Below are positions 11,195 through 33,329 of a stretch of DNA of 37,278 bases, piece by piece. Every line of letters starts with the position of its first letter. The stretch's first letter is position 1. The notes below the pieces were generated by a model. The model was not told the origin of the DNA. It saw nothing but the letters and a program-made list of their open reading frames with translations, and did not search any database. This stretch comes from a virus (taxonomy: Duplodnaviria > Heunggongvirae > Uroviricota > Caudoviricetes): the IMG/VR virus record IMGVR_UViG_2872698443_000007; one strand, written 5' to 3'. The translations under genes were made by a program, and so were the position numbers.

Positions 11195-11782
11195 TCAACA
11201 TAATGCTGATTCAGGGGATTCATTGCTCTTATTTGCCGGAAATTTTCTATAAATTGTGGAAACACCTACATCAAAAATCAGTGCAATACGCTGTCTTGAT
11301 TCTCCGGCCTCGAGTAAACGTCCAATCTGTGCCCACTGTTCGGTGATCAACTTAGGACGGCGTCCACCTACTCTGCCTTTGGCGCGAGCTGCAGCCAGCC
11401 CCGCCCTGGTACGTTCAACTATCAGTTCGCGCTCCATTTCAGCCAGGGCCCCCATGACATGAAAAAAGAAACGGCCCATTGGGGTACTGGTATCAATACT
11501 GTCAGTCAGGCTTCGGAAATTCACGCCGCGTTCGCGCAGTTCCTCAACCAGAATGACCAGATGCCGCATACTACGCCCCAGCCTGTCCAGCTTCCAGACT
11601 ACCAGAGTGTCACCTGCTGATAATGTTCTGAGCAGTTTTTTCAGTCCCGGTCTGTCGGACTTCGTGCCGCTGATTTTATCCTCAAAAATCCGCTCGCATC
11701 CTGCGCACTCCAGCGCGTTACGCTGCAATTCCGTGTTCTGGTCATTTGTTGACACGCGTACATAGCCAATAAGCATGAGCAT
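11195..11782 (-). CDS. serine-recombinase DNA invertase (Hin/Gin/Cin/Pin family)
   Basis: 195 aa, MLIGYVRVSTNDQNTELQ... with the resolvase-type catalytic Ser motif (YVRVSTNDQ) and a C-terminal helix-turn-helix. Lies immediately outside the invertible tail-fibre segment. Confidence 0.85.
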   Translation of the reverse strand: MLMLIGYVRVSTNDQNTELQRNALECAGCERIFEDKISGTKSDRPGLKKLLRTLSAGDTLVVWKLDRLGRSMRHLVILVEELRERGVNFRSLTDSIDTSTPMGRFFFHVMGALAEMERELIVERTRAGLAAARAKGRVGGRRPKLITEQWAQIGRLLEAGESRQRIALIFDVGVSTIYRKFPANKSNESPESALC

Positions 11783-11803
11783 CCCCCTGAATAAAAACCG
11801 GAG

Positions 11804-12319
11804 ATGATGCCAGTTGCCCGTTATCTCTGCATTTTCATAAACGTTGGTTTGGGAGAAGGTGCTCCAGCTATTGGCGTTCCGTTCTTCTGGCCCTCCGCGG
11901 CAATGCCAAATACTGTAATCGACAGCTGGTCCAGTATGGTGTTTTTGAAGTTCAACGGCGCGAAATTCTCTGCCACTGATTACCCTGTGCTGGCGAAAGT
12001 GTTTCCTTCGCTGGTATTACCTGAAGCCCGCGGTGATTTCATTCGTATCTGGGATGATGGTCGTGGTGTAGATAGTGGACGTGGATTACTTAGTACGCAG
12101 TCTGACCTGATGAAACAATTTACTTTGCAATACTACGGTCCTTCTGCTGGTACTGGAACAAGAACGGTTTTCGCCCTCCAGAGTAATGCGAACGGCATAT
12201 ATACGAGTGGTATTAGTCAGAATGATGGTAGTGGCACCGCTGCGGCTTTTAATGTACCAGGCGGCACCGAAACACGCCCACGTAACATTGCATTCAACTT
12301 TTTAGTAAGGGCTAAATAA
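11804..12319 (+). CDS. alternative tail-fibre C-terminal cassette (promoterless in this orientation)
   Basis: Open frame reading ...INVGLGEGAPAIGVPFFWPSAAMPNTV... from the crossover site; would be fused to the constant part of H after inversion. The functional part probably starts at ~11858; the ORF-track start at 11804 is not a real start. Confidence 0.6.
   Translation: MMPVARYLCIFINVGLGEGAPAIGVPFFWPSAAMPNTVIDSWSSMVFLKFNGAKFSATDYPVLAKVFPSLVLPEARGDFIRIWDDGRGVDSGRGLLSTQSDLMKQFTLQYYGPSAGTGTRTVFALQSNANGIYTSGISQNDGSGTAAAFNVPGGTETRPRNIAFNFLVRAK
11832..11857. repeat. invertase crossover site (left, hix/gix-like 26-bp site)
   Basis: TTTTCATAAACG TT GGTTTGGGAGAA. The half-site GGTTTGGGAGAA (11846-11857) is the exact reverse complement of TTCTCCCAAACC at 13689-13700. 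Confidence 0.7.
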
Positions 12320-12912
12320 TGAAACCTGTTTTTGATAAAAATGGGCTGGCTACAGTGCCGGGTGATATGCGTTGTTTTTATTATGATGCAGTAACATCTG
12401 AATATACTGGCTGGTCTGATGAATATATTAATACTGGTGTAAGTATGCCCGCCTGTTCCACTGGTATTGACCCGGGCGAATACATTCCGGGGAAAGTGGC
12501 AGTATTTACGGGTAAGGGATGGAGCCATGAAGAAGACCATCGCAATGAGACCGTTTACTCAACTGAAAATGGCGCAGCTGTTACAGTGGATTATATCGGT
12601 GCCATCAAAGACGGTTATGTCACGCTTTCACCGTTAACGCCATACGATAAATGGGATGGTGAGAAATGGGTGACAGATACTGAGGCACAACACGGTGCCG
12701 CAGTAGAAGCGGCAGAAGCACAGCGCCAGTCACTGATTGATGCTGCAATGGCTTCCATCAGTCTGATTCAGCTGAAATTACAGGCCGGGCGGAAGCTGAC
12801 GCAGGCAGAAACCACCCGACTTAACATTGTGCTGGATTACATTGACGCGGTGACGGCAACAGATACCAGCACCGCGCCGGATGTCATCTGGCCTGAACTG
12901 CCGGAGGCGTAG
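12319..12912 (+). CDS. alternative tail-fibre assembly protein (U'/G'-like)
   Basis: 197 aa; TAATG overlap with the preceding cassette; C-terminus ...LDYIDAVTATDTSTAPDVIWPELPEA typical of tail-fibre assembly chaperones. Confidence 0.7.
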   Translation: MKPVFDKNGLATVPGDMRCFYYDAVTSEYTGWSDEYINTGVSMPACSTGIDPGEYIPGKVAVFTGKGWSHEEDHRNETVYSTENGAAVTVDYIGAIKDGYVTLSPLTPYDKWDGEKWVTDTEAQHGAAVEAAEAQRQSLIDAAMASISLIQLKLQAGRKLTQAETTRLNIVLDYIDAVTATDTSTAPDVIWPELPEA

Positions 12913-13396
12913 GCCATTCAATATCTGGCGCACTGGAGGAATCAACCAGTTCCAGTGCGTCCAGATAATCAAGCCATGAATTATATTGCGCCAGTTCCTC
13001 ACCTTTCAGACGACCAATAGCAGCCTTTCCTGGCCACTGCTTACTGTTAATATATTCATTAACTCGATTTATGAGTGCCTGTTTTTTTCGTTCCGCTTCT
13101 GACAGTTGTTCTTCATGAGTTAGCGGCGGTACGTCATCCCATGCAGGATAGCCATCATCACCCGCAACTCTCACCTTCCCTGGAGGTGGGGACAGGTACT
13201 TAATAAATATATCCTCATCAACTTCAACTCCATTATGAGGCCATAACCCAGACTCCTTATACTGACTTTCCAGAGTAAATGGGTAAAACATATTAGTTTT
13301 AGCATCGTAAAGATATTTACTCATTTTATCTTCCTGTAGCAAACCAGCGGCAACCAGCGACAGTTGGAACATTGAAGGATGGATTTCCTTTATCAA
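12884..13396 (-). CDS. G: tail-fibre assembly protein (G/U-like), currently expressed orientation
   Basis: C-terminus ...LDYLDALELVDSSSAPDIEWPTPP. 3' end overlaps the convergent alternative assembly gene. The real start is probably the internal Met at ~13324 (MSKYLYDAK...), 2 nt after the H stop. Confidence 0.7.
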   Translation of the reverse strand: MIKEIHPSMFQLSLVAAGLLQEDKMSKYLYDAKTNMFYPFTLESQYKESGLWPHNGVEVDEDIFIKYLSPPPGKVRVAGDDGYPAWDDVPPLTHEEQLSEAERKKQALINRVNEYINSKQWPGKAAIGRLKGEELAQYNSWLDYLDALELVDSSSAPDIEWPTPPAVQAR

Positions 13397-23192: not shown

Positions 23193-24959
23193 ATGAACAC
23201 CACACTGACACCCGCAGATCTCGATCCCCGTCGGCAGGCCATGCTGCTGTACTTTCAGGGATACCGCGTAGCCCGCATTGCTGAAATGCTGGGCGAGAAA
23301 GTTGCAACCGTTCACAGCTGGAAAAAACGCGACAAGTGGGGTGACTATGGGCCACTGGATCAGATGCAGCTCACCACCGCCGCACGCTACTGCCAGCTCA
23401 TTATGAAGGAGCACAAAGAAGGGAAAGATTTCAAAGAGATTGACCTGCTGGCGCGCCAGTCTGAGCGCCACGCGCGGATCGGCAAGTTTAACAATGGCGG
23501 CAACGAAGCCGACTTAAACCCTAACGTCGCCAACCGCAACAAAGGCCCGCGCCGTCAGCCGGAAAAAAATGTCTTCACCGATGAACAGATTGAGAAGCTG
23601 GAAGAAATCTTCCATTCCTCCATGTTCAACTACCAGCGCCACTGGTGGGAAGCCGGAAAAACCAACCGCATCCGCAACCTGCTGAAGTCACGCCAGATCG
23701 GCGCGACCTTTTACTTTGCCCGTGAAGCCCTGATTGACGCTCTGCTTACCGGACGTAACCAGATTTTCCTTTCCGCCAGCAAGGCACAGGCCCACGTCTT
23801 TAAGCAGTACATCATCGACTTCGCCAAAGAAGTGGAAGTGGAGCTGAAAGGCGATCCGATGGTGCTTCCCAACGGGGCCACACTGTATTTCCTCGGCACC
23901 AATGCCCGCACGGCCCAGAGTTACCACGGCAACCTGTATCTGGATGAATATTTCTGGATACCGAAATTCCAGGAGCTGCGCAAAGTGGCTTCCGGTATGG
24001 CTATTCACAAAAAATGGCGACAAACCTATTTTTCCACGCCATCCAGCCTGACACACAGTGCTTATCCGTTCTGGTCCGGTGCGCTATTCAACCGTGGGCG
24101 CAATAAAGCCGACAAGGTGGACATAGACCTGTCCCACAGCAATCTGGCTCCAGGCCTGCTGTGTGCAGACGGGCAATACCGCCAGATAGTCACCGTGGAA
24201 GATGCGGTGCGCGGCGGCTGTAACCTGTTCGACCTTGACCAGTTGCGCATGGAATACAGCCCGGACGAATACCAGAACCTGCTGATGTGTGAATTCGTGG
24301 ACGATCTCGCGTCCGTGTTCCCGCTCAGCGAGCTGCAGGCGTGCATGGTGGACAGCTGGGAAGTCTGGACCGACTTTCATGCACTGGCCCTGCGCCCGTT
24401 TGGCTGGCGCGAAGTGTGGATCGGTTATGACCCGGCAAAAGGTACGCAAAACGGCGACAGCGCCGGGTGCGTGGTGGTGGCTCCGCCAGCCGTGCCGGGC
24501 GGTAAGTTCCGCATTCTTGAGCGTCACCAGTGGCGCGGGATGGACTTCCGTGCCCAGGCGGACGCCATCAAAAAACTGACTGAACAGTACAACGTGACCT
24601 ATATCGGTATCGACTCGACAGGTGTCGGTCACGGGGTTTATGAGAACGTAAAAGCGTTCTTTCCTGCCGTCCGGGAGTTTGTCTACAACCCCAACGTTAA
24701 AAACGCCCTGGTACTCAAGGCCTACGACATTATCAGCCACCGCCGTCTGGAGTTTGACGCCGGACACACCGACATTGCGCAGTCATTCATGGCAATCCGT
24801 CGCGCAACCACCGCCAGTGGCAACCGCCCGACCTATGAAGCCAGCCGCAGCGAAGAAGCCAGCCACGCCGATCTGGCCTGGGCAACGATGCACGCACTGT
24901 TTAACGAACCGCTGCAGGGCGAGTCCGCCAATACCAGCAATATTGTGGAGATTTTTTGA
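23193..24959 (+). CDS. P: terminase large (ATPase) subunit P
   Basis: 588 aa; divergent from O; followed by the portal gene. Confidence 0.8.
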   Translation: MNTTLTPADLDPRRQAMLLYFQGYRVARIAEMLGEKVATVHSWKKRDKWGDYGPLDQMQLTTAARYCQLIMKEHKEGKDFKEIDLLARQSERHARIGKFNNGGNEADLNPNVANRNKGPRRQPEKNVFTDEQIEKLEEIFHSSMFNYQRHWWEAGKTNRIRNLLKSRQIGATFYFAREALIDALLTGRNQIFLSASKAQAHVFKQYIIDFAKEVEVELKGDPMVLPNGATLYFLGTNARTAQSYHGNLYLDEYFWIPKFQELRKVASGMAIHKKWRQTYFSTPSSLTHSAYPFWSGALFNRGRNKADKVDIDLSHSNLAPGLLCADGQYRQIVTVEDAVRGGCNLFDLDQLRMEYSPDEYQNLLMCEFVDDLASVFPLSELQACMVDSWEVWTDFHALALRPFGWREVWIGYDPAKGTQNGDSAGCVVVAPPAVPGGKFRILERHQWRGMDFRAQADAIKKLTEQYNVTYIGIDSTGVGHGVYENVKAFFPAVREFVYNPNVKNALVLKAYDIISHRRLEFDAGHTDIAQSFMAIRRATTASGNRPTYEASRSEEASHADLAWATMHALFNEPLQGESANTSNIVEIF

Positions 24960-25990
24960 TGGGAAAGAGTAAGAAAAACCGCACTGCGGCGACGAATCAG
25001 ATCCAGCATAAAAACCAAACTTCAGCCGAAGCATTCAGCTTCGGCGATCCCGTTCCTGTTCTGGACCGCCGAGAATTACTGGACTATGTGGAATGCGTAC
25101 AGATGGACCGTTGGTATGAGCCGCCCGTCAGCTTTGACGGACTGGCGCGCACCTTCCGCGCTGCCGTGCATCACAGTTCCCCGATTGCAGTAAAGTGCAA
25201 CATTCTGACCAGTACCTATATCCCTCATCCTTTGCTCAGCCAGCAGGCTTTTTCGCGTTTTGTGCAGGACTATCTGGTATTTGGCAACGCCTATCTGGAG
25301 AAACGCACGAACCGCTTCGGTGAAGTGATCGCCCTTGAACCTGCGCTGGCAAAATACACCCGACGCGGATTAGACCTGGATACCTACTGGTTTGTGCAAT
25401 ACGGTATGACAACCCAGCCGTATCAGTTCACGAAAGGCAGCATTTTTCATCTGATGGAACCGGATATTAATCAGGAGATCTACGGTCTGCCCGGCTATCT
25501 TTCTGCCATTCCGTCAGCCCTGCTCAACGAGTCCGCCACGCTGTTCCGTCGCAAGTATTACATTAACGGCAGTCATGCGGGCTTTATCATGTACATGACC
25601 GATGCCGCGCAAAACCAGGAGGATGTGAACAACCTCCGCAATGCGATGAAAAGCGCCAAAGGTCCAGGCAACTTCCGCAACCTGTTTATGTACTCGCCTA
25701 ACGGCAAAAAGGACGGGCTTCAGATCATCCCATTGTCAGAAGTCGCGGCGAAGGATGAATTTCTTAATATCAAGAACGTGAGTCGGGATGACATGATGGC
25801 AGCGCACCGCGTGCCGCCTCAGATGATGGGGATTATGCCTAATAATGTTGGGGGGTTTGGGGATGTGGAGAAGGCTAGTCGTGTTTTTGTTCGGAACGAG
25901 CTGATGCCTCTACAAAAAAGATTCCAAGAAGTAAATGAATACTTTGACGGGAACATAATCAGCTTTGAAGAATACAAACTGACCATCTAA
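24956..25990 (+). CDS. Q: portal protein Q
   Basis: 344 aa (same length as P2 Q as I recall); ATGA overlap with P. Confidence 0.8.
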   Translation: MMGKSKKNRTAATNQIQHKNQTSAEAFSFGDPVPVLDRRELLDYVECVQMDRWYEPPVSFDGLARTFRAAVHHSSPIAVKCNILTSTYIPHPLLSQQAFSRFVQDYLVFGNAYLEKRTNRFGEVIALEPALAKYTRRGLDLDTYWFVQYGMTTQPYQFTKGSIFHLMEPDINQEIYGLPGYLSAIPSALLNESATLFRRKYYINGSHAGFIMYMTDAAQNQEDVNNLRNAMKSAKGPGNFRNLFMYSPNGKKDGLQIIPLSEVAAKDEFLNIKNVSRDDMMAAHRVPPQMMGIMPNNVGGFGDVEKASRVFVRNELMPLQKRFQEVNEYFDGNIISFEEYKLTI

Positions 25991-26000
25991 AATAAATAAC

Positions 26001-26024
26001 AAAAAAGAGGGTTCCCCCTCTTTT
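26001..26024. terminator. bidirectional rho-independent terminator between Q and the cargo gene
   Basis: AAAAAA-GAGGG-TTCC-CCCTC-TTTT: hairpin flanked by A-run and T-run. Confidence 0.6.
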
Positions 26025-26029
26025 ATATA

Positions 26030-27796
26030 TTAATTATTATCGTATAACTCCTGAATTTTTGCTGGATTAGCAAAAAACCTTGCAGGATAAGCATTTGGAT
26101 AATTATCTTCGATATAATTTTCTGTCCTAGCTATTAATGCTGCTAAATTAGCAGTGATTTGTGCTGAATCAGGAGCAAGCTGAATGGTACTATTCTGTAA
26201 ATCTGACACCATATTCAACAGCACTGAAGCATAATATCTATTACCATGAGTTATTATTAAATGACGGCGACTATGCGTTGATTTATCTGTAGCTGCTAAA
26301 GTTGAGCTAATAGCACGTTCTATCACACGAAAATGGTTAACAGCATTTATTAACTTGATACCACTTAATCGCGGATTGAAAATTGTTCTATATAATGACC
26401 CTTCAAAATTTTCAAAAAACCTACCACGATTAGATTTTAAAGTTGCAACTATAGTATTATTTTTACTTAAGCAAGCTAGAGCATTCAAAGCCTCATCGAG
26501 ATCAATTACCTTGGCGTTAGACTGTAAATAATCCTCATCGGTTCGCAATAATTGGTATTGATACCCTTCAAGCACAAGCTCTCTCGCCAGTCTATGCTGA
26601 TCGGGTTGTTGTGAAGCAAAATCTCTTCCTAAAACTCTATTCTGGAAATTATTAGCTCTGGTTATTGCATTGGCATTGAGATCATTTACATCATTATTAA
26701 TTTCAATAAAACGAACAGGGACTTTAACTTGATAAATTCTATCGCCTAGCACATCCATAACACTGCCTAAACTACTCACAGTTTGCGCGCCGTTGATCAC
26801 ACTCACATCTTTAAAATCGAAAACCCCTCTTTCAGTGCCTGCAGCTGCGTTTCTTCTGTGAGGAATTAACTCGTTCACTAGTAACGTAATACCGTTATTG
26901 TAAAACCAAAACATTTCTGGATTATCAATTGCAGTTTTTTTTATTTCTTCGTTAACATCTGTCTTACCAAGCATATTTCTTATGTTTTTCGTAAAAAGGC
27001 GGGTTCCATATTGTTTCCACCAATTCCCAACCTGGTCCCCAGCTAAAGTTCCATAAAATGCTCTGTAAGGTTCATTAATAAACCCATAGCGTTCAACTTC
27101 TACGCCATCCAAATCAATTTGACCTCTTGAGCCAGTCTGCAACCAATGGACTAAATCCTCTGATGAAATCAAATGAACTTGAAACCCCCATTCTTCTTTC
27201 GGTGATTCTGTCGGGGTAAACGACGCTTCATTTAATTCACGTTGCCACTCTTGCATATCACGTAAAATATCTTCTGAGGCACCTTTTTTCCCTGTGTGAG
27301 TCATAGCGAAGATAAATTTATAATCAAATGAATTAAGAGCTGCGCTTATATCTGAACTCTTATCTTGAAGAATCTGGTCAAAAAGTTCATATCGTTCATT
27401 CTGAAGTTTTTCACAAGCATCCTTGAAGCACACAAAATCAGGTCTGCTCCAAGTACCATTTCCAGCCTGATTAAATTTGGACTGAACAACTACAACAATT
27501 TTTTCACTATGATTTATGACTATGCCATCAATGCCTCCATCCTCAGAACTGTCGCATACAGACTCACCTGCATGCTTTTCATCAACACCACCAAGTTGAT
27601 ACATCGTAAACGCCGCCAGAGCCCTACTTGCCATTTTAATATTGTAATCTTGTTGACTGGGTTGGCACTCTCGCTTATGAACATAGTCTTCAAACCTTTC
27701 TCTCAAAACACTACCAAGCCTTAGAGCTATAACTTGCGCCGTCGCCGCTGCAGCTACAGCGTTATCCTCAACTCGGAGATCTACAACGAATGCCAT
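26030..27796 (-). CDS. cargo protein with N-terminal Mrr-type PD-(D/E)xK nuclease signature; function unknown, candidate defence effector
   Basis: ~588 aa from the first ATG at 27796 (AAGGA ribosome-binding site 8 nt upstream); the ORF track extends to a TTG at 27823. Motif ...EDGGIDGIVINHSEKIVVVVQSKF... fits the restriction-endonuclease D-x(n)-Q/E-x-K pattern. No Walker A motif. AT-rich relative to flanking phage genes. Confidence 0.6.
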   Translation of the reverse strand: MAFVVDLRVEDNAVAAAATAQVIALRLGSVLRERFEDYVHKRECQPSQQDYNIKMASRALAAFTMYQLGGVDEKHAGESVCDSSEDGGIDGIVINHSEKIVVVVQSKFNQAGNGTWSRPDFVCFKDACEKLQNERYELFDQILQDKSSDISAALNSFDYKFIFAMTHTGKKGASEDILRDMQEWQRELNEASFTPTESPKEEWGFQVHLISSEDLVHWLQTGSRGQIDLDGVEVERYGFINEPYRAFYGTLAGDQVGNWWKQYGTRLFTKNIRNMLGKTDVNEEIKKTAIDNPEMFWFYNNGITLLVNELIPHRRNAAAGTERGVFDFKDVSVINGAQTVSSLGSVMDVLGDRIYQVKVPVRFIEINNDVNDLNANAITRANNFQNRVLGRDFASQQPDQHRLARELVLEGYQYQLLRTDEDYLQSNAKVIDLDEALNALACLSKNNTIVATLKSNRGRFFENFEGSLYRTIFNPRLSGIKLINAVNHFRVIERAISSTLAATDKSTHSRRHLIITHGNRYYASVLLNMVSDLQNSTIQLAPDSAQITANLAALIARTENYIEDNYPNAYPARFFANPAKIQELYDNN

Positions 27797-27976
27797 TAAT
27801 TTTTCCTTATAGAATATGTACAACGTTAGCAGTGATTAAAAGGTTACTCGTTAAGCGGAAATTGTACTACAACATTCTACTAAATATGGATATATCAATG
27901 AGTAAGAACTCATCTTTGCTAACTCACATACATTGTTAAAAATACTTAGCTTCGCTGTTCACCCCGTCGCCGCGCG

Positions 27977-27995
27977 CTCGTATCCCCGCCACGCC
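27977..27995 (-). other. putative cos site (cohesive end)
   Basis: Minus strand reads GGCGTGGCGGGGATACGAG. The first 13 nt match my recollection of the 186 cohesive end GGCGTGGCGGGGAAAGCAT (P2: GGCGAGGCGGGGAAAGCAC); overall 14 of 19 vs 186. Orientation points toward Q, as in P2. Confidence 0.5.
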
Positions 27996-28042
27996 TGCCC
28001 GCTTTATGTAGTGGTTTTCATGCGCCTGCATGACATAAGCAA

Positions 28043-28066
28043 AGGCCCGCCATTCCTAGCGGGCCT
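28043..28066 (-). terminator. hairpin downstream of the 290-aa cargo gene (possible terminator)
   Basis: Perfect 8-bp stem AGGCCCGC / GCGGGCCT with an 8-nt loop, ~100 bp past the gene stop; the following T-run is weak. Confidence 0.35.
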
Positions 28067-28167
28067 CAGCTAAAACGATCCTCAAACGATCATGCGGATT
28101 CATGCGGCATAGTCATGCACTTGTGTGGTTACGAAGGAATATAGTTGCGAAAATCGATTAAAATGCC

Positions 28168-29040
28168 TTAAGCTCTCTTAATCAACCCCTTATGCGTTGC
28201 TTTGGTAAGATAAGCTAATTCTTTAGGCCCCTTATCTCTAAAGCCCACCCATTCTGGTTGGATTTTTATAAAACTTGGAATTGCGGTTGCCAAGGCTGTA
28301 ACCATACCGGGAATAATACCGCCTGAATAACCAGCAATAGCAGCATGGTACAACGGTTTTAAAAATTCCATAACCTGCCCACCATCTACTTCTGGATTGG
28401 CTTTGACTCCCATTCTGATAGGATTTCTCCATTTCCCTTCGATAGCTTTATCAAGATTAACTACAGCCTCTTGTAATAAAGAAAAATTTTTAGCCCTCGT
28501 TAGATTAGGGTCTCTAGAATAAAGGACTTCAGTATACAGTTTTTCTAAGTACTCATGTAACGCATTAAGATCATCCTGACAATCATCTTTAAAACGTAAT
28601 ATATCTTCTATATGAGCATCTTTATCAGGAATTCTCAGAACATTAAACAACTCCAATCTCAACTGAAGGGCCGTTTTCTGTTCTTTATCATATATTAAAT
28701 TTTCCCCTGTTTGATGAAAGTGCCAATAAGTAGCAGGCTCGTTCTTCCTGAATTCATCCAATGTCTGCAACTGAAATTCCGTATATAAAAATGGAAAGTC
28801 TTGGATATTCAGCATACCATCATGTTTCATAATAGGTCTACGTAATACCCCATTATCTAATAATTCTTTTTCTTTAGGCACAATCGAGTGAATATTTTCA
28901 CTATCTAGAATAACCACATCATCCCAGTAAAAGCAGAAATAATTAATATCCTGCTCAGTTAAACCTGCCCCAAGATAGACCGTACTATTATTTCTATGAA
29001 AACTCATTTCATTAGGATTAGCTACAATGCCACGTTTCAT
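28168..29040 (-). CDS. hypothetical cargo protein, function unknown (position of P2 tin/old)
   Basis: ~290 aa from the ATG at 29040 (AAGGAG ribosome-binding site 5 nt upstream): MKRGIVANPNEMSFHRNNSTVYLGAGLTEQ... Strongly AT-rich. C-terminal hydrophobic stretch GGIIPGMVTALATAIPSFI. No recognisable catalytic motif. Confidence 0.6.
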   Translation of the reverse strand: MKRGIVANPNEMSFHRNNSTVYLGAGLTEQDINYFCFYWDDVVILDSENIHSIVPKEKELLDNGVLRRPIMKHDGMLNIQDFPFLYTEFQLQTLDEFRKNEPATYWHFHQTGENLIYDKEQKTALQLRLELFNVLRIPDKDAHIEDILRFKDDCQDDLNALHEYLEKLYTEVLYSRDPNLTRAKNFSLLQEAVVNLDKAIEGKWRNPIRMGVKANPEVDGGQVMEFLKPLYHAAIAGYSGGIIPGMVTALATAIPSFIKIQPEWVGFRDKGPKELAYLTKATHKGLIKRA

Positions 29041-29836: not shown

Positions 29837-32251
29837 TTAATACAGGTTTCGCCACTTATCATCTTCCTGCAAACGCTGGTTCCGATAGAAGATACGCAGG
29901 CCTGCTCCTGACGGAATACTGCCGCCGCGAAGGAGTAAATCGACCTCTTTCTCGCTGCCATCAAATCCCCTGGACTTCAGTTCATACACGAGCTGCAGTC
30001 GCTGATGGTCTGTAATTCGCTGTTTGTAGTCTTTACGCCGTTTCGGTTTCACCAGGCGTAACCTTGCTGCCAGTTCCCGGCGCTCTTTTTTGCTCATACT
30101 GTGCAGGTAATCGTGCAACTCCTTGTCATCCATGCGGGTGATATCCGTTCTGGTATCTCCATCAGCTGATTTGTCTTTCCCTTGTTGGTACAAATTTTCA
30201 GCAAGGGGACAGTTATTGCCACGAGTCCAAGGGGCGCAAGCGCCCTGGTCGGCTGCCGCCTCCTGAACGTCAACGGCCTTACGAACCATTTTCCACTTCA
30301 CTGCATGAGTGCAGATCTTGCCCTCTGCAATGGGTGACCAGATGCCATAAATACGAATACCGTGATCACCATAGGCGGTCGGCTCTTCGTTGATTTCATA
30401 AGCGGTTCTGATCAAGTGATATTTGCGGGGAACCAACACGCCGCCCTGCTTCATAATGTAGGTGGCAAAACAGCCAGCATCAGCAGCAGCCAGAATGGCA
30501 TCAAGACGCGGATCATCCAGTACCGGCGCACCTGCTTTTTTGTCACCCTGCTGCCTTGCCGCCTGACCAGCCAGCAATCGCAGTTCACGGTAAGCCTGAC
30601 GCCCCGGAATGCCAAAGAAGCGGAATTGCTGAACACGATGCAGAGACGCCCAGGCATTAACGTATTCAGCGTTATCACGCAGGGATTTACCCGTTTCCTT
30701 GCTGATCTCGCCAGCCAGACCACGCCCGTCAATGTTCTTACTGATGTATTTCGCGATGTAGCTTGTCGGCGTTCCTTTGCGCGGGTTAATCAGCTCAGAC
30801 TTAAAGCGTGGCCCCGTGTTATTGCCCAGTTCCTCGCGGTCTTCACGGATGGCAAACTTACGCAGTAATGCAGTGATGGCGCGGCGGTCTTTTTTACGCA
30901 TGAAGCACATGAGATGCCAGTGCACAGTACCGTCATGATGCGGCTCAGCCACCCGCACGCCATACCACCGCAATCCGGCTTTGTGCATCGCCTTACGAAA
31001 TGCAGCAAACATGCCGACCAGATAATCACTGCTTTGTCTTACCGTCGCATTTGTCCAGGTCGGGTTTGGTCTGCCGTTATTGAGCGTGGAATGGAAACGT
31101 GACGGACAGGTGATGGTGTAGAAAACGGCGCAGTCACCGCGCATTTCCGCGATAAGCTCCAGACCTTTAACGCAGGCCATCATCTCATTGCGGCGATGTG
31201 CCGGGTTGCTGCTGCTGGCGTTTACCACATCTTCCATATCCAGCGTGTCTCCGTCTTCGTTCACCAGTTCATGAGAACGGAAAAACTCCAGCGACTTGCG
31301 GCGCTGCTCACGTTTATGCGTCACTGCTTCATAGCTGACATAGGGAGATGCTTTTTTGCTGACCAGACAGACAGCACGCAACTGCTCTTCCCGCCATTCG
31401 CAACGCATCTTCCACAATTTTCGATACCACCAGTCGGCGCAAAGCATACGTGCCAGCGAACCCGGTATGAGTTCATAGGGCACAGGTTTGCGGCGGTTTC
31501 TTTTCCGACGAAGTTTCTCAAACGCAGGCGGGATAACATCCAGACGCAGGGTTTCCGCAGCCACCTTTTCCCATGTCTTGCGGATTTCTTCTGGCTTAAC
31601 GTCATCGGTGGCGTACAAATCACCACAAGCGGCCTCAAGACACATGCTCATATGCGCTGCTACCAGGGTGGACAGGCGTTTCACCTGATCCTGGCTCATT
31701 TCAGGCAGGATCAGCAGCCCCTCCAGCCCTTGATGGCTTGCCATAAAACGGAAAGAAACAGATAGCTGACTGTCACGTACACAATCCAGTCGCTCCAGGC
31801 ATGGCTTAATCGTCTCACGCAAATAGCGGGAATAAGCCTTTGGCCTGCCCAGGCTGCTGAAGTATTCGATACGTTGCATCAGCGGCTTGCTGATATGAGA
31901 AGGCTGGGCGCTGACATCTGCCAGAATGACCATGTCCGGGTTAAAACGCTGCTGCTCATGCGCCAGCTTTGCCCGGCTAATGAGCTTATCCTGCTCCATT
32001 TCGCGCTGGACAGGATCACGGGATTCATTAAAGAAATAACGCTCCCAGACCTGCTCACTCAGTGCCTCGCGGCGCAGTTGTTCCTGCTCGTTATCGGCAG
32101 CGTACAGAGTGATCAGGTTTGAAAGTGCAGACTCCGGCGCAACTTCCGCCGGATCCAGATAAGGGTTAATGGCCTTTTTCGGGCCGTTCCATGAAAATGC
32201 TGCGGCAGCCTCGTTAAAGCCGCTAGAGTTGCTCATATCGTCATGACTCAT
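29837..32251 (-). CDS. A: replication initiation endonuclease A (rolling-circle)
   Basis: 804-aa protein in the early operon downstream of dam. Confidence 0.75.
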
Positions 32252-33105
32252 ACACGCACCTCGTACACAGCAGAACTATCCACGCCACGCGAAGGATCAA
32301 ATCCCATCCAGCAGCGCGCCCCGGAAACAGCAATGATTTCTGTTGCAGATTTACTCTCGCCAGCTGACACGCCGATGCTGCGTTTTGCCTTGATGTAGTG
32401 GTGAGTGAAATTGCGATACAGCGAACGGATCAGGGATGTGTCACTGTTAGAAACAATGACCGGATGACCTTCTGATGATCGATATTCAAGAACGGATGCC
32501 AGGTGATACTGGTCATCTTCAGTGAAGCCGTCAGTGTGATAACCGGAAAACGTGCCGTCATACGGCGGATCGCAATACACCACATCCCCCGCCTTCAACA
32601 TCGCCAGCGTTTCATCAAAGCTGGCGCAGATAAACGTTGCTCGCTGGGCCTTTTCTGCAAATGCGTGAATTTCTTTTTCAGGGAAATACGGATTTTTATA
32701 ATTACCGTAGGGAATGTTGAAATGCCCGCTCTTGTTATAGCGACATAAACCACGGTAACCGTGACGATTGAGATACAGGAAATATACCGCTTTCATGAAA
32801 TCAGTAATTTCAGTTGAGTAATTAAACTCCTGCCTTATGTTGTAATAAGCTAGGTCACTGTTTGCTTCCTCAAACAAAGTTCTGGTCCGCGATATAAACG
32901 CCTCGCAATCAGCGGCAATCTTTTTATAGAGGTTGATTAAATCAGGATTAATATCCGCAACCAGATAGCTGGGGTAATCCGTCTCCATCATCACAGCACA
33001 GGAACCCGCGAAAGGTTCAACCAGTCGCGGGCCAGCAGGTAGGTATTTTTTCAGTTCGGACATAATTGCGGTTTTATTTCCCGCCCATTTCAGGATGGTG
33101 CTCAT
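32248..33105 (-). CDS. DNA N6-adenine methyltransferase (Dam-like, alpha class)
   Basis: Start at the internal [11 protein letters not shown]...; motif I PFAGSCAV and catalytic DPPY (VYCDPPY) visible. Confidence 0.8.
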
Positions 33106-33329
33106 ACAGCACCTCCGTTGTAATGTTTGCCTTTCAGCTCTGCGATTTCCTGACAGGTAATGCAAAGCTGCACTCCAGGAATGGCACGGCGGCGTGCTGG
33201 CGGAATTGGTGCTTCACATTCAATGCAAAGCACGCGAGACACGCCCGGTGTTTTGGCACGGGCAGCACGGATATGGCGCTGGCGTTCTTCTTCAACGCGC
33301 TGCTGTACGAGATCCATTGCATCAGCCAT
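33102..33329 (-). CDS. TraR/DksA-family C4 zinc-finger protein
   Basis: 75 aa; CIECEAPIP...CITCQ four-cysteine finger. Confidence 0.7.
   Translation of the reverse strand: MADAMDLVQQRVEEERQRHIRAARAKTPGVSRVLCIECEAPIPPARRRAIPGVQLCITCQEIAELKGKHYNGGAV

Follow-up and report, generated by a model that had tools for sequence, protein, structure and literature searches.

An AT-rich gene between the portal gene Q and the cos site of a prophage in virus record IMGVR_UViG_2872698443_000007 (37,278 nucleotides, hereafter the window) was found to encode a stand-alone member of the AIPR/AbiU family, a family that corresponds to Pfam PF10592 and PHROG 1841 and of which the protein represents one subfamily. 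The prophage belongs to the P2 family and is of the 186/Fels-2 type, with genes for a CI-186-type repressor, a CII/CP76 protein, an integrase and a Dam-like methylase. Its cos-to-Q slot holds the AIPR gene as horizontally acquired cargo. The protein consists of three parts, which in the predicted structure are an N-terminal nuclease-like domain of the FokI/Mrr type, an AIPR core with a modest likeness to ParB and sulfiredoxin (Srx), and a helical C-terminus. We consider it probable that this is an anti-phage protein expressed from the prophage, in which the nuclease would be gated by the ParB-like module. The coordinates of all features are collected in Table 1.

Assignment to the family was based on profile matches along most of the protein. 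Pfam AIPR (PF10592) matched residues 268-519 over positions 1-256 of the 308 in the profile, with E=1.5e-31 and 110.7 bits against a cut-off of 25, and the AbiU model of PADLOC (PDLC02357) matched residues 134-554 over model positions 125-507 of 537 (E=5.4e-24, 83.3 bits). The match to PHROG 1841, "Abi alpha-like abortive infection mechanism", covered residues 26-588 against positions 3-562 of 567 with E=4.5e-196, and an identical protein, WP_061350925.1, is annotated in RefSeq as "AIPR family protein". All 56 diverged homologues that were aligned for conservation (24-41% identical to the window protein) also matched AIPR. The MzaE model of PADLOC matched residues 252-402 (E=6.6e-13) through the common AIPR core; the Mza system itself was rejected, with 52.9 bits for NCBIfam MzaE against a cut-off of 1050 and with Q, cos and a DUF6236 gene as neighbours. 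A preliminary description of this DNA had offered an AIPR-like protein as one possibility, and that guess proved exactly right, while the stretch of about 450 residues that it called unassigned is the AIPR domain itself. Profile searches, which it had named as a way to expose a phage structural or replication protein, returned the AIPR family. The proposal of an undescribed anti-phage system could not be kept: the defence-model scan did yield a match, to AbiU of PADLOC, but this is a known family, which is also PHROG 1841, is labelled AIPR in RefSeq and is listed in the tables of the P2 and P4 hotspots.

The open reading frame claimed at 26030..27823 is present on the minus strand and encodes 597 residues from a TTG start and 588 residues from the ATG at 27796. 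This ATG is the correct start because all 31 of the 31 aligned homologues begin at its position, with MAF, MAL, MAY or MSF, and because the RefSeq coding sequence "AIPR family protein" in CP058709 has identical coordinates and the same start. The motifs DGGIDG and VVVVQSK were located at residues 86-91 and 101-107, and no Walker A motif was found in the 588-residue protein, in agreement with the earlier statement that it has no P-loop. The AT-richness was also borne out, the G+C content being 0.379 in the gene and 0.542 in P plus Q, with third-position values (GC3) of 0.277 for the gene and 0.693 for P. The gene has its own ribosome-binding site and terminator as described, the terminator hairpin being situated between the stop codons of Q (25990) and of the AIPR gene (26030), at a position corresponding to tQ of P2.

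Structural analysis was made with an AlphaFold2 model from 32 sequences, which had a mean predicted local distance difference test (pLDDT) of 80.9 and a predicted template modelling (pTM) score of 0.50. In this model the nuclease domain has a restriction-endonuclease-like fold, with D90 just before the strand 91-95 and Q105 and K107 at the end of the strand 100-107, which is the layout expected of a D...(D/E/Q)xK site. Residues D82, D86, G88, D90, Q105 and K107 were invariant in the 56 homologues. AspBHI and MspJI were among the best three structural neighbours of the domain, followed by the BspD6I subunits, LlaBIII, Avs4, HamA, NucS and Card1, all of them PD-(D/E)xK nucleases. The recurrent weak Pfam matches of the 56 homologues other than AIPR were to Mrr_cat (4), Mrr_cat_2 (4) and HamA (2), again all PD-(D/E)xK. 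In the literature, AbiU-1 has been placed in the PD-(D/E)XK superfamily by a 2026 paper on Upx (PMC13099982), and an AlphaFold model of AbiUi resembles FokI according to a 2026 review (PMC13064643). Makarova et al. 2013 described AbiU1/AIPR as a ParB-superfamily domain that is often fused to nucleases. A HEPN domain at the N-terminus has been stated for AIPR proteins (PMC3506569); no HEPN family was detected in the N-terminus of the window protein, which fits the later paper of the same group with its ParB-like domain fused to various nucleases.

The same structural comparison also gave, at modest scores, the ParB-like PadC (6.3), the ParB N-domain (5.3), BrxU/GmrSD (5.1) and sulfiredoxins (4.9 and 4.7). 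When residues 225-588 were modelled on their own (pLDDT 83.7), chains of the ParB/Srx fold again ranked first, the scores being modest as before: PadC 6.2, BrxU 5.0, sulfiredoxin 4.9 and 4.8, ParB-N 4.8, KorB 4.6 and SspE 4.3. Residues N271, R273, N282, N300-N301-G302, N335-G336-A337-Q338-T339, N383, Q385, N386 and F393 of the AIPR core were invariant in the 56 homologues, giving the motifs NxR, NNG, NGAQT and NxQN. ParB (GxxR), DUF262 (DGQQR) and sulfiredoxin carry a phosphate-binding motif at a strand-to-helix junction. At the equivalent junction of the window protein no arginine-containing nucleotide-binding motif (GxxR, DGQQR or FGGCHR) was found; the invariant NGAQT (residues 335-339, INGAQT at 334-339) is present there instead and contains no arginine; the invariant R273 might take over that role. 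Domains that read DNA modifications, such as SRA or YTH, were not detected in the protein. Among the sequences of the PDB, no relative was found with the single sequence, and a profile of the C-terminal 364 residues gave only chance matches to melanocortin receptor. Membership in GmrSD or type IV systems (DUF262 plus DUF1524) was rejected, as Pfam scans showed neither family, even when the two halves of the protein were scanned separately with a limit of E<=10.

The placement of the gene between Q and cos, as had been claimed, was confirmed by alignment with P2. Read on the minus strand from 27995 to 27971, the cos core GGCGTGGCGGGGATACGAGCGCGCG aligns to P2 cosL GGCGAGGCGGGGAAAGCACTGCGCG, and the minus-strand read from 27995, GGCGTGGCGGGGATACGAGCGCGCGGCGACGG, can be aligned to GGCGAGGCGGGGAAAGCACTGCGCGCTGACGG, the left end of P2; by analogy, the 19-nt cohesive end of the window would be 27977-27995. 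The core belongs to a conserved cos block whose carriers, 78 phage records, include Fels-2, RE2010, SopEPhi and P2-like phages of Klebsiella and Yersinia, with variable DNA on both sides of it. Within this block a G+C-rich hairpin (28044-28065, minus strand; GGCCCGC-taggaatg-GCGGGCC followed by TTTGCTT) was read by eye; it was absent from the output of the terminator scan, and it may end transcription of the cargo on the DUF6236 side before cos or may be part of the terminase recognition region.

In P2 the interval from cosL through tQ to Q is 187 bp and contains only the terminator tQ and no gene, and tin and old are located between A and cosR, that is, on the opposite side of cos from Q. The earlier statement that the Q-cos interval is empty in P2/186 genomes is therefore valid for P2 itself and fails for E. 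coli relatives with this type of cos, and the likening of the position to that of tin/old went too far, since these genes lie across cos, where the window has the DUF6236 gene. The P2 hotspot was defined by Rousset et al. 2022 (PMC9122126) as lying near cos, between gpA and gpQ, and the window shows just such a variable gene, between A and Q and beside the cos core. The whole Q-to-A interval of 3.8 kb is AT-rich, with a G+C content of 0.33-0.44 per 500 bp as compared with about 0.55 in the core of the prophage. AIPR genes appear in the P4 and P2 locus tables of Rousset et al. 2022, AbiU has been reported in P2 and P4 elements, and AbiU is detected by PADLOC in Salmonella prophages.

Occupancy of the slot was gauged in 5426 complete E. 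coli genomes with a synthetic join of the last 500 bp of Q and the cos block. The join matched in 1293 genomes, but at most 94 had both parts no more than about 825 bp apart, a rough measure given that the cos region of some genomes may be of another kind. In the joined examples listed a small gene is still present, for instance DUF6953 or "super-infection exclusion protein B". The AIPR gene was present in nine of the 5426 genomes, always in the Q-cos slot and at >=99.8% identity, and the nine carriers came from different hosts and countries, with the reading frame intact. With the flanking Q/cos in about 1290 genomes and the gene in nine, it is cargo, as the preliminary description had it, and is not conserved across related prophages.

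All seven distinct loci with this cos core that were compared, including the window's own record S163-2, contained a cargo gene between the core and Q. The 25-nt core is identical in all seven, and beyond its last base towards Q there is no further similarity, which indicates that the cargo junction abuts the core; the gap from the core to the start of the gene was 86-199 bp in the four loci measured. The same AIPR allele occupied the slot in S163-2, ZYS9073 and 10034940-2, different AIPR proteins in Salmonella phage RE2010 (554 residues, 23% identical) and E. coli 95-3322 (580 residues, 26% identical), and P-loop NTPase genes in two other strains. Another AIPR, 26% identical, was found in the same slot of Klebsiella P2-like phages. 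Occupancy of the Q-cos slot is thus unusual for P2 and not for this lineage. In the 95-3322 allele (locus 4375-6117) AQCYF is found where the window protein (27476-27541) reads VQSKF, so that the nuclease site may be degenerate there, and some alleles in the cos-Q slot may, judging from sequence, have lost the QxK lysine. From the arrangement of these loci, a single crossover in Q/P together with cos cutting would suffice to swap the left-end cassette, and such swapping might explain why the P2 and P4 hotspots both flank cos.

The same AIPR allele is accompanied on the A side of cos by four or more different cargo genes, among them DUF6236, TIR, LA2681-type HEPN and HNH genes. The DUF6236 gene occurs with the same flanks in many E. 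coli genomes that lack the AIPR gene and is far commoner than it. Since the cargo across cos changes with the same AIPR allele and DUF6236 also occurs alone, the two sides of cos are independent slots. A two-gene system of AIPR and DUF6236 was considered and rejected, as the cos block with its hairpin separates the genes, the partners swap and DUF6236 occurs alone. The DUF6236 protein had no match in PADLOC and is a candidate for an uncharacterised defence gene.

Beyond E. coli, close homologues of the same length (52-88% identity) were found in Pectobacterium, Yersinia, Serratia, Klebsiella, Cronobacter, Aeromonas, Vibrio, Pseudomonas, Shewanella and cyanobacteria. When 1.84 billion representatives of 50%-identity clusters were searched with a profile, 6627 proteins passed E<=1e-3 and 593 passed E<=1e-30, most of them of 550-590 residues and aligned end to end. 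Full-length homologues with 37-39% identity are encoded on the 5.6-kb plasmids NZ_CP138750.1, NZ_CP056368.1 and NZ_CP056554.1 (Klebsiella, Citrobacter and Enterobacter), where the gene fills about a third of each plasmid, a striking investment for a replicon so small. Lactococcus abiU was not found among the plasmid matches listed. In Aggregatibacter phage S1249 the CI-type repressor gene is immediately followed by a homologue with 35% identity, at the classical place for an exclusion gene expressed in the lysogen.

In Pectobacterium, Vibrio and Pseudomonas the homologous gene was located in variable islands or at the end of a prophage, and an open reading frame on the same strand followed it after 55-190 bp (Vibrio 7963-8868, Pectobacterium 7822-8739, Pseudomonas 8008-8691, in locus coordinates). 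These frames encode 227-305 residues and match no Pfam family, and the one in Vibrio has C-terminal zinc-ribbon-like matches. A conserved downstream partner in these genera was nevertheless rejected, because the neighbours of 305, 301 and 227 residues do not align with one another and share no Pfam family. No antitoxin-like partner was conserved among the neighbours examined. Both the swapping of partners across cos and the unrelated neighbours in other genera point to a single-gene system, which agrees with the single-protein system proposed at the outset, no conserved partner being present in the E. coli, Pectobacterium, Vibrio or Pseudomonas loci.

The anti-phage reading can be set out as a series of steps. 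The AIPR gene would be expressed from the prophage, and its nuclease domain would be the effector that cuts DNA. The ParB-like AIPR module, together with the helical tail, would act as a sensor or switch that binds a nucleotide, a feature of the DNA or a phage product, and would hold a non-specific nuclease off until infection; superinfecting phages would then be blocked by the protein. An outcome like that of AbiU, with an early block and some cost to the cell, appears slightly more likely than clean restriction in the style of type IV systems.

Several observations weigh against this reading. The clone of a P4 AIPR in the work of Rousset et al. 2022, pFR77, was outside the seven systems reported as active against eight phages (PMC9122126). 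The PADLOC AbiU hidden Markov model left the first 133 residues of the protein and its own N-terminal quarter unaligned, and Pfam Mrr_cat stayed below threshold (13.4 against 21 bits, E=0.087, residues 81-110 on profile positions 28-58). A Foldseek search of the full-length model against the PDB returned nothing, the best E being 0.44, and at a pTM score of only 0.50 for the full-length model the arrangement of the domains is tentative. The scan upstream of the AIPR gene gave no promoter that satisfied its criteria, reading by eye gave only TACAAT with a poor -35, and the native promoter assumed earlier is unproven. Finally, the protein and its subfamily are known from sequence and predicted structure, and neither a solved structure nor a biochemical mechanism for the AIPR/AbiU family was found in the literature searched.

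A possible, though rather unlikely, alternative is restriction similar to that of type IV systems, in which the AIPR module would recognise modified or non-self DNA and license the nuclease on the incoming genome, leaving the cell unharmed. In its favour, AspBHI and MspJI, two of the three structures closest to the nuclease domain, depend on DNA modification and have a cleavage domain of the same type, and a frequent linkage of AIPR genes with restriction-modification operons and methylases has been described (PMC2292703, PMC3506569, PMC3632139). The window gene, by contrast, is solitary and shares its slot with no methylase, and the lack of a detectable modification reader argues in the same direction. 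AbiU, moreover, is described as an abortive infection protein: according to the review PMC13064643, which cites Dai 2001, phage transcription starts late in the presence of Lactococcus AbiU and plating drops 10- to 100-fold, a weak protection.

It is less likely still that the gene serves the mobile element, either by hindering P4-type satellites or rival P2-like phages with a common cos site, or by providing stability or addiction. Its position next to cos, the sole sequence common to P2 and P4 (PMC9122126), would suit such a role, as would the large share of the small plasmids that is given to homologues and the absence of the P4-borne AIPR from the systems reported as active against eight unrelated coliphages (PMC9122126). 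The family is also present, however, in chromosomal islands and in a lambdoid phage beside the repressor, where there is no link to cos; recognition of cos by an AIPR protein is not evidenced, and an antitoxin-like partner, as noted, is not conserved. A silent or decaying passenger without current function in E. coli is very improbable: very AT-rich foreign DNA (GC3 0.28), the upstream scan without a qualifying promoter and the rarity of the gene would fit it, but nine genomes that differ in host and country have the frame intact and nearly identical, all the family-invariant residues of the catalytic type and of the AIPR motifs are kept, and full-length homologues extend across Enterobacterales, Vibrio, Pseudomonas and cyanobacteria.

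The finding alone is ordinary, for a defence finder would call the gene AbiU and its RefSeq name is already AIPR. Its worth is a practical one, because a very large family borne by phages, satellites, plasmids and islands is here represented by an allele in a tractable E. coli prophage, with D82, D86, D90, Q105 and K107 of the nuclease and R273, N300/N301, N335, Q338 and T339 of the AIPR core as targets for mutation. It also refines the P2 hotspot into two independently swapping slots split by cos, the Q-side one starting right after the cos core. As a tentative generalization, AIPR/AbiU could form a large "inverted GmrSD" class, in which an arginine-less ParB/Srx-like module, with its motifs NxR, NNG, NGAQT and NxQN, would bind a nucleotide or a DNA feature and switch on a fused FokI/Mrr-type nuclease. 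The cos-to-Q interval may in addition be a distinct cassette site.

Table 1. Features of the cos-to-Q slot and its surroundings in the window
Feature	Coordinates	Strand	Basis or remark
AIPR/AbiU-family gene	26030..27796	-	588 residues plus stop, ATG at 27796; open reading frame, Pfam, PADLOC, PHROG, RefSeq
N-terminal PD-(D/E)xK nuclease-like domain, FokI/Mrr type (predicted)	27131..27649	-	about residues 50-222
Predicted catalytic motif CD82-SSxD86-GGID90...VVVVQ105-S-K107	27476..27553	-	residues invariant in 56 homologues
AIPR domain	26240..26995	-	Pfam match, residues 268-519; core (about residues 290-420) with modest likeness to the ParB/sulfiredoxin fold, rest alpha-helical
C-terminal alpha-helical tail	26033..26239	-	residues 520-588; no assignment
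Ribosome-binding site AAGGA	27804..27808	-	7 nt before ATG; read from sequence
Bidirectional intrinsic terminator of the converging Q and AIPR genes	26003..26024	both	AAAAGAGGGGGAACCCTCTTTT, G+C-rich hairpin, T-runs on both strands
cos core, left boundary of the cargo slot	27971..27995	-	aligned to P2 cosL; identical 25-mer in 7 Fels-2-like loci
Conserved non-coding cos block, 151 bp	27971..28121		85-94% identity in 78 phage records
Portal gene Q, right-hand limit of the slot	24959-25990	+	open reading frame; RefSeq "phage portal protein"
Terminase gene P	23193-24959	+	list of open reading frames, RefSeq
DUF6236 gene, A-side cargo	28168..29040	-	Pfam DUF6236, E=4.4e-21; PHROG 23128, unknown function
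Replication gene A	29837-32251	-	list of open reading frames, RefSeq

Other parts of the window were noted as well. Just upstream of A, on the minus strand, a gene at 32248-33165 encodes a D12-class N6-adenine DNA methyltransferase (Pfam, E=2.4e-75), and such a prophage-encoded enzyme could matter if any cos-proximal cargo senses DNA modification. A serine recombinase/invertase with Resolvase and HTH_7 domains is encoded at 11195-11782 on the minus strand, and tail-fibre assembly genes adjoin it on both strands (12319-12912 on the plus and 12884-13396 on the minus strand); the region 11195-13396 looks like an invertible tail-fibre switch of host range. The left end of the window is not of phage origin, containing an insertion sequence (IS)-type DDE transposase (144-1112) and an Asp-Al_Ex/TrkA_C permease (2001-3686), which places the prophage boundary to the right of about 3.7 kb.

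The system can be compared with several known ones. AbiU/AbiU1 (AbiUi) of Lactococcus lactis pND001 (Dai et al. 2001), for which PADLOC and DefenseFinder have models, is, like the window protein, a single protein of about 570-590 residues with an AIPR core; the two are distant and were compared through hidden Markov models, and the window gene has no adjoining AbiU2/HEPN gene, a Gram-negative host and a prophage as its carrier. The frames downstream of the Vibrio, Pectobacterium and Pseudomonas homologues recall the AbiU2 modulator gene beside abiU1, the resemblance being one of position only. Old and tin of P2 are likewise AT-rich cargo of the lysogenic-conversion type in the same A-Q hotspot, but they are not homologous to the AIPR gene and occupy the A side of cos, whereas the AIPR gene occupies the Q side, which is empty in P2.

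With respect to the cleavage domains of FokI, MspJI/AspBHI and Mrr, the sequence similarity is at noise level and the partner domain is different. The nuclease domain is C-terminal in FokI, MspJI and AspBHI and N-terminal in the window protein. Compared with GmrSD/BrxU and SspE, which join a DUF262 ParB-like NTPase to a DUF1524 HNH nuclease, the nuclease of the window protein would be PD-(D/E)xK rather than HNH, the order of the domains is reversed, and NGAQT takes the place of DGQQR. In these proteins a ParB-like domain controls a fused nuclease, and they provide the closest working analogy for the AIPR protein, the likeness being one of logic rather than of membership.

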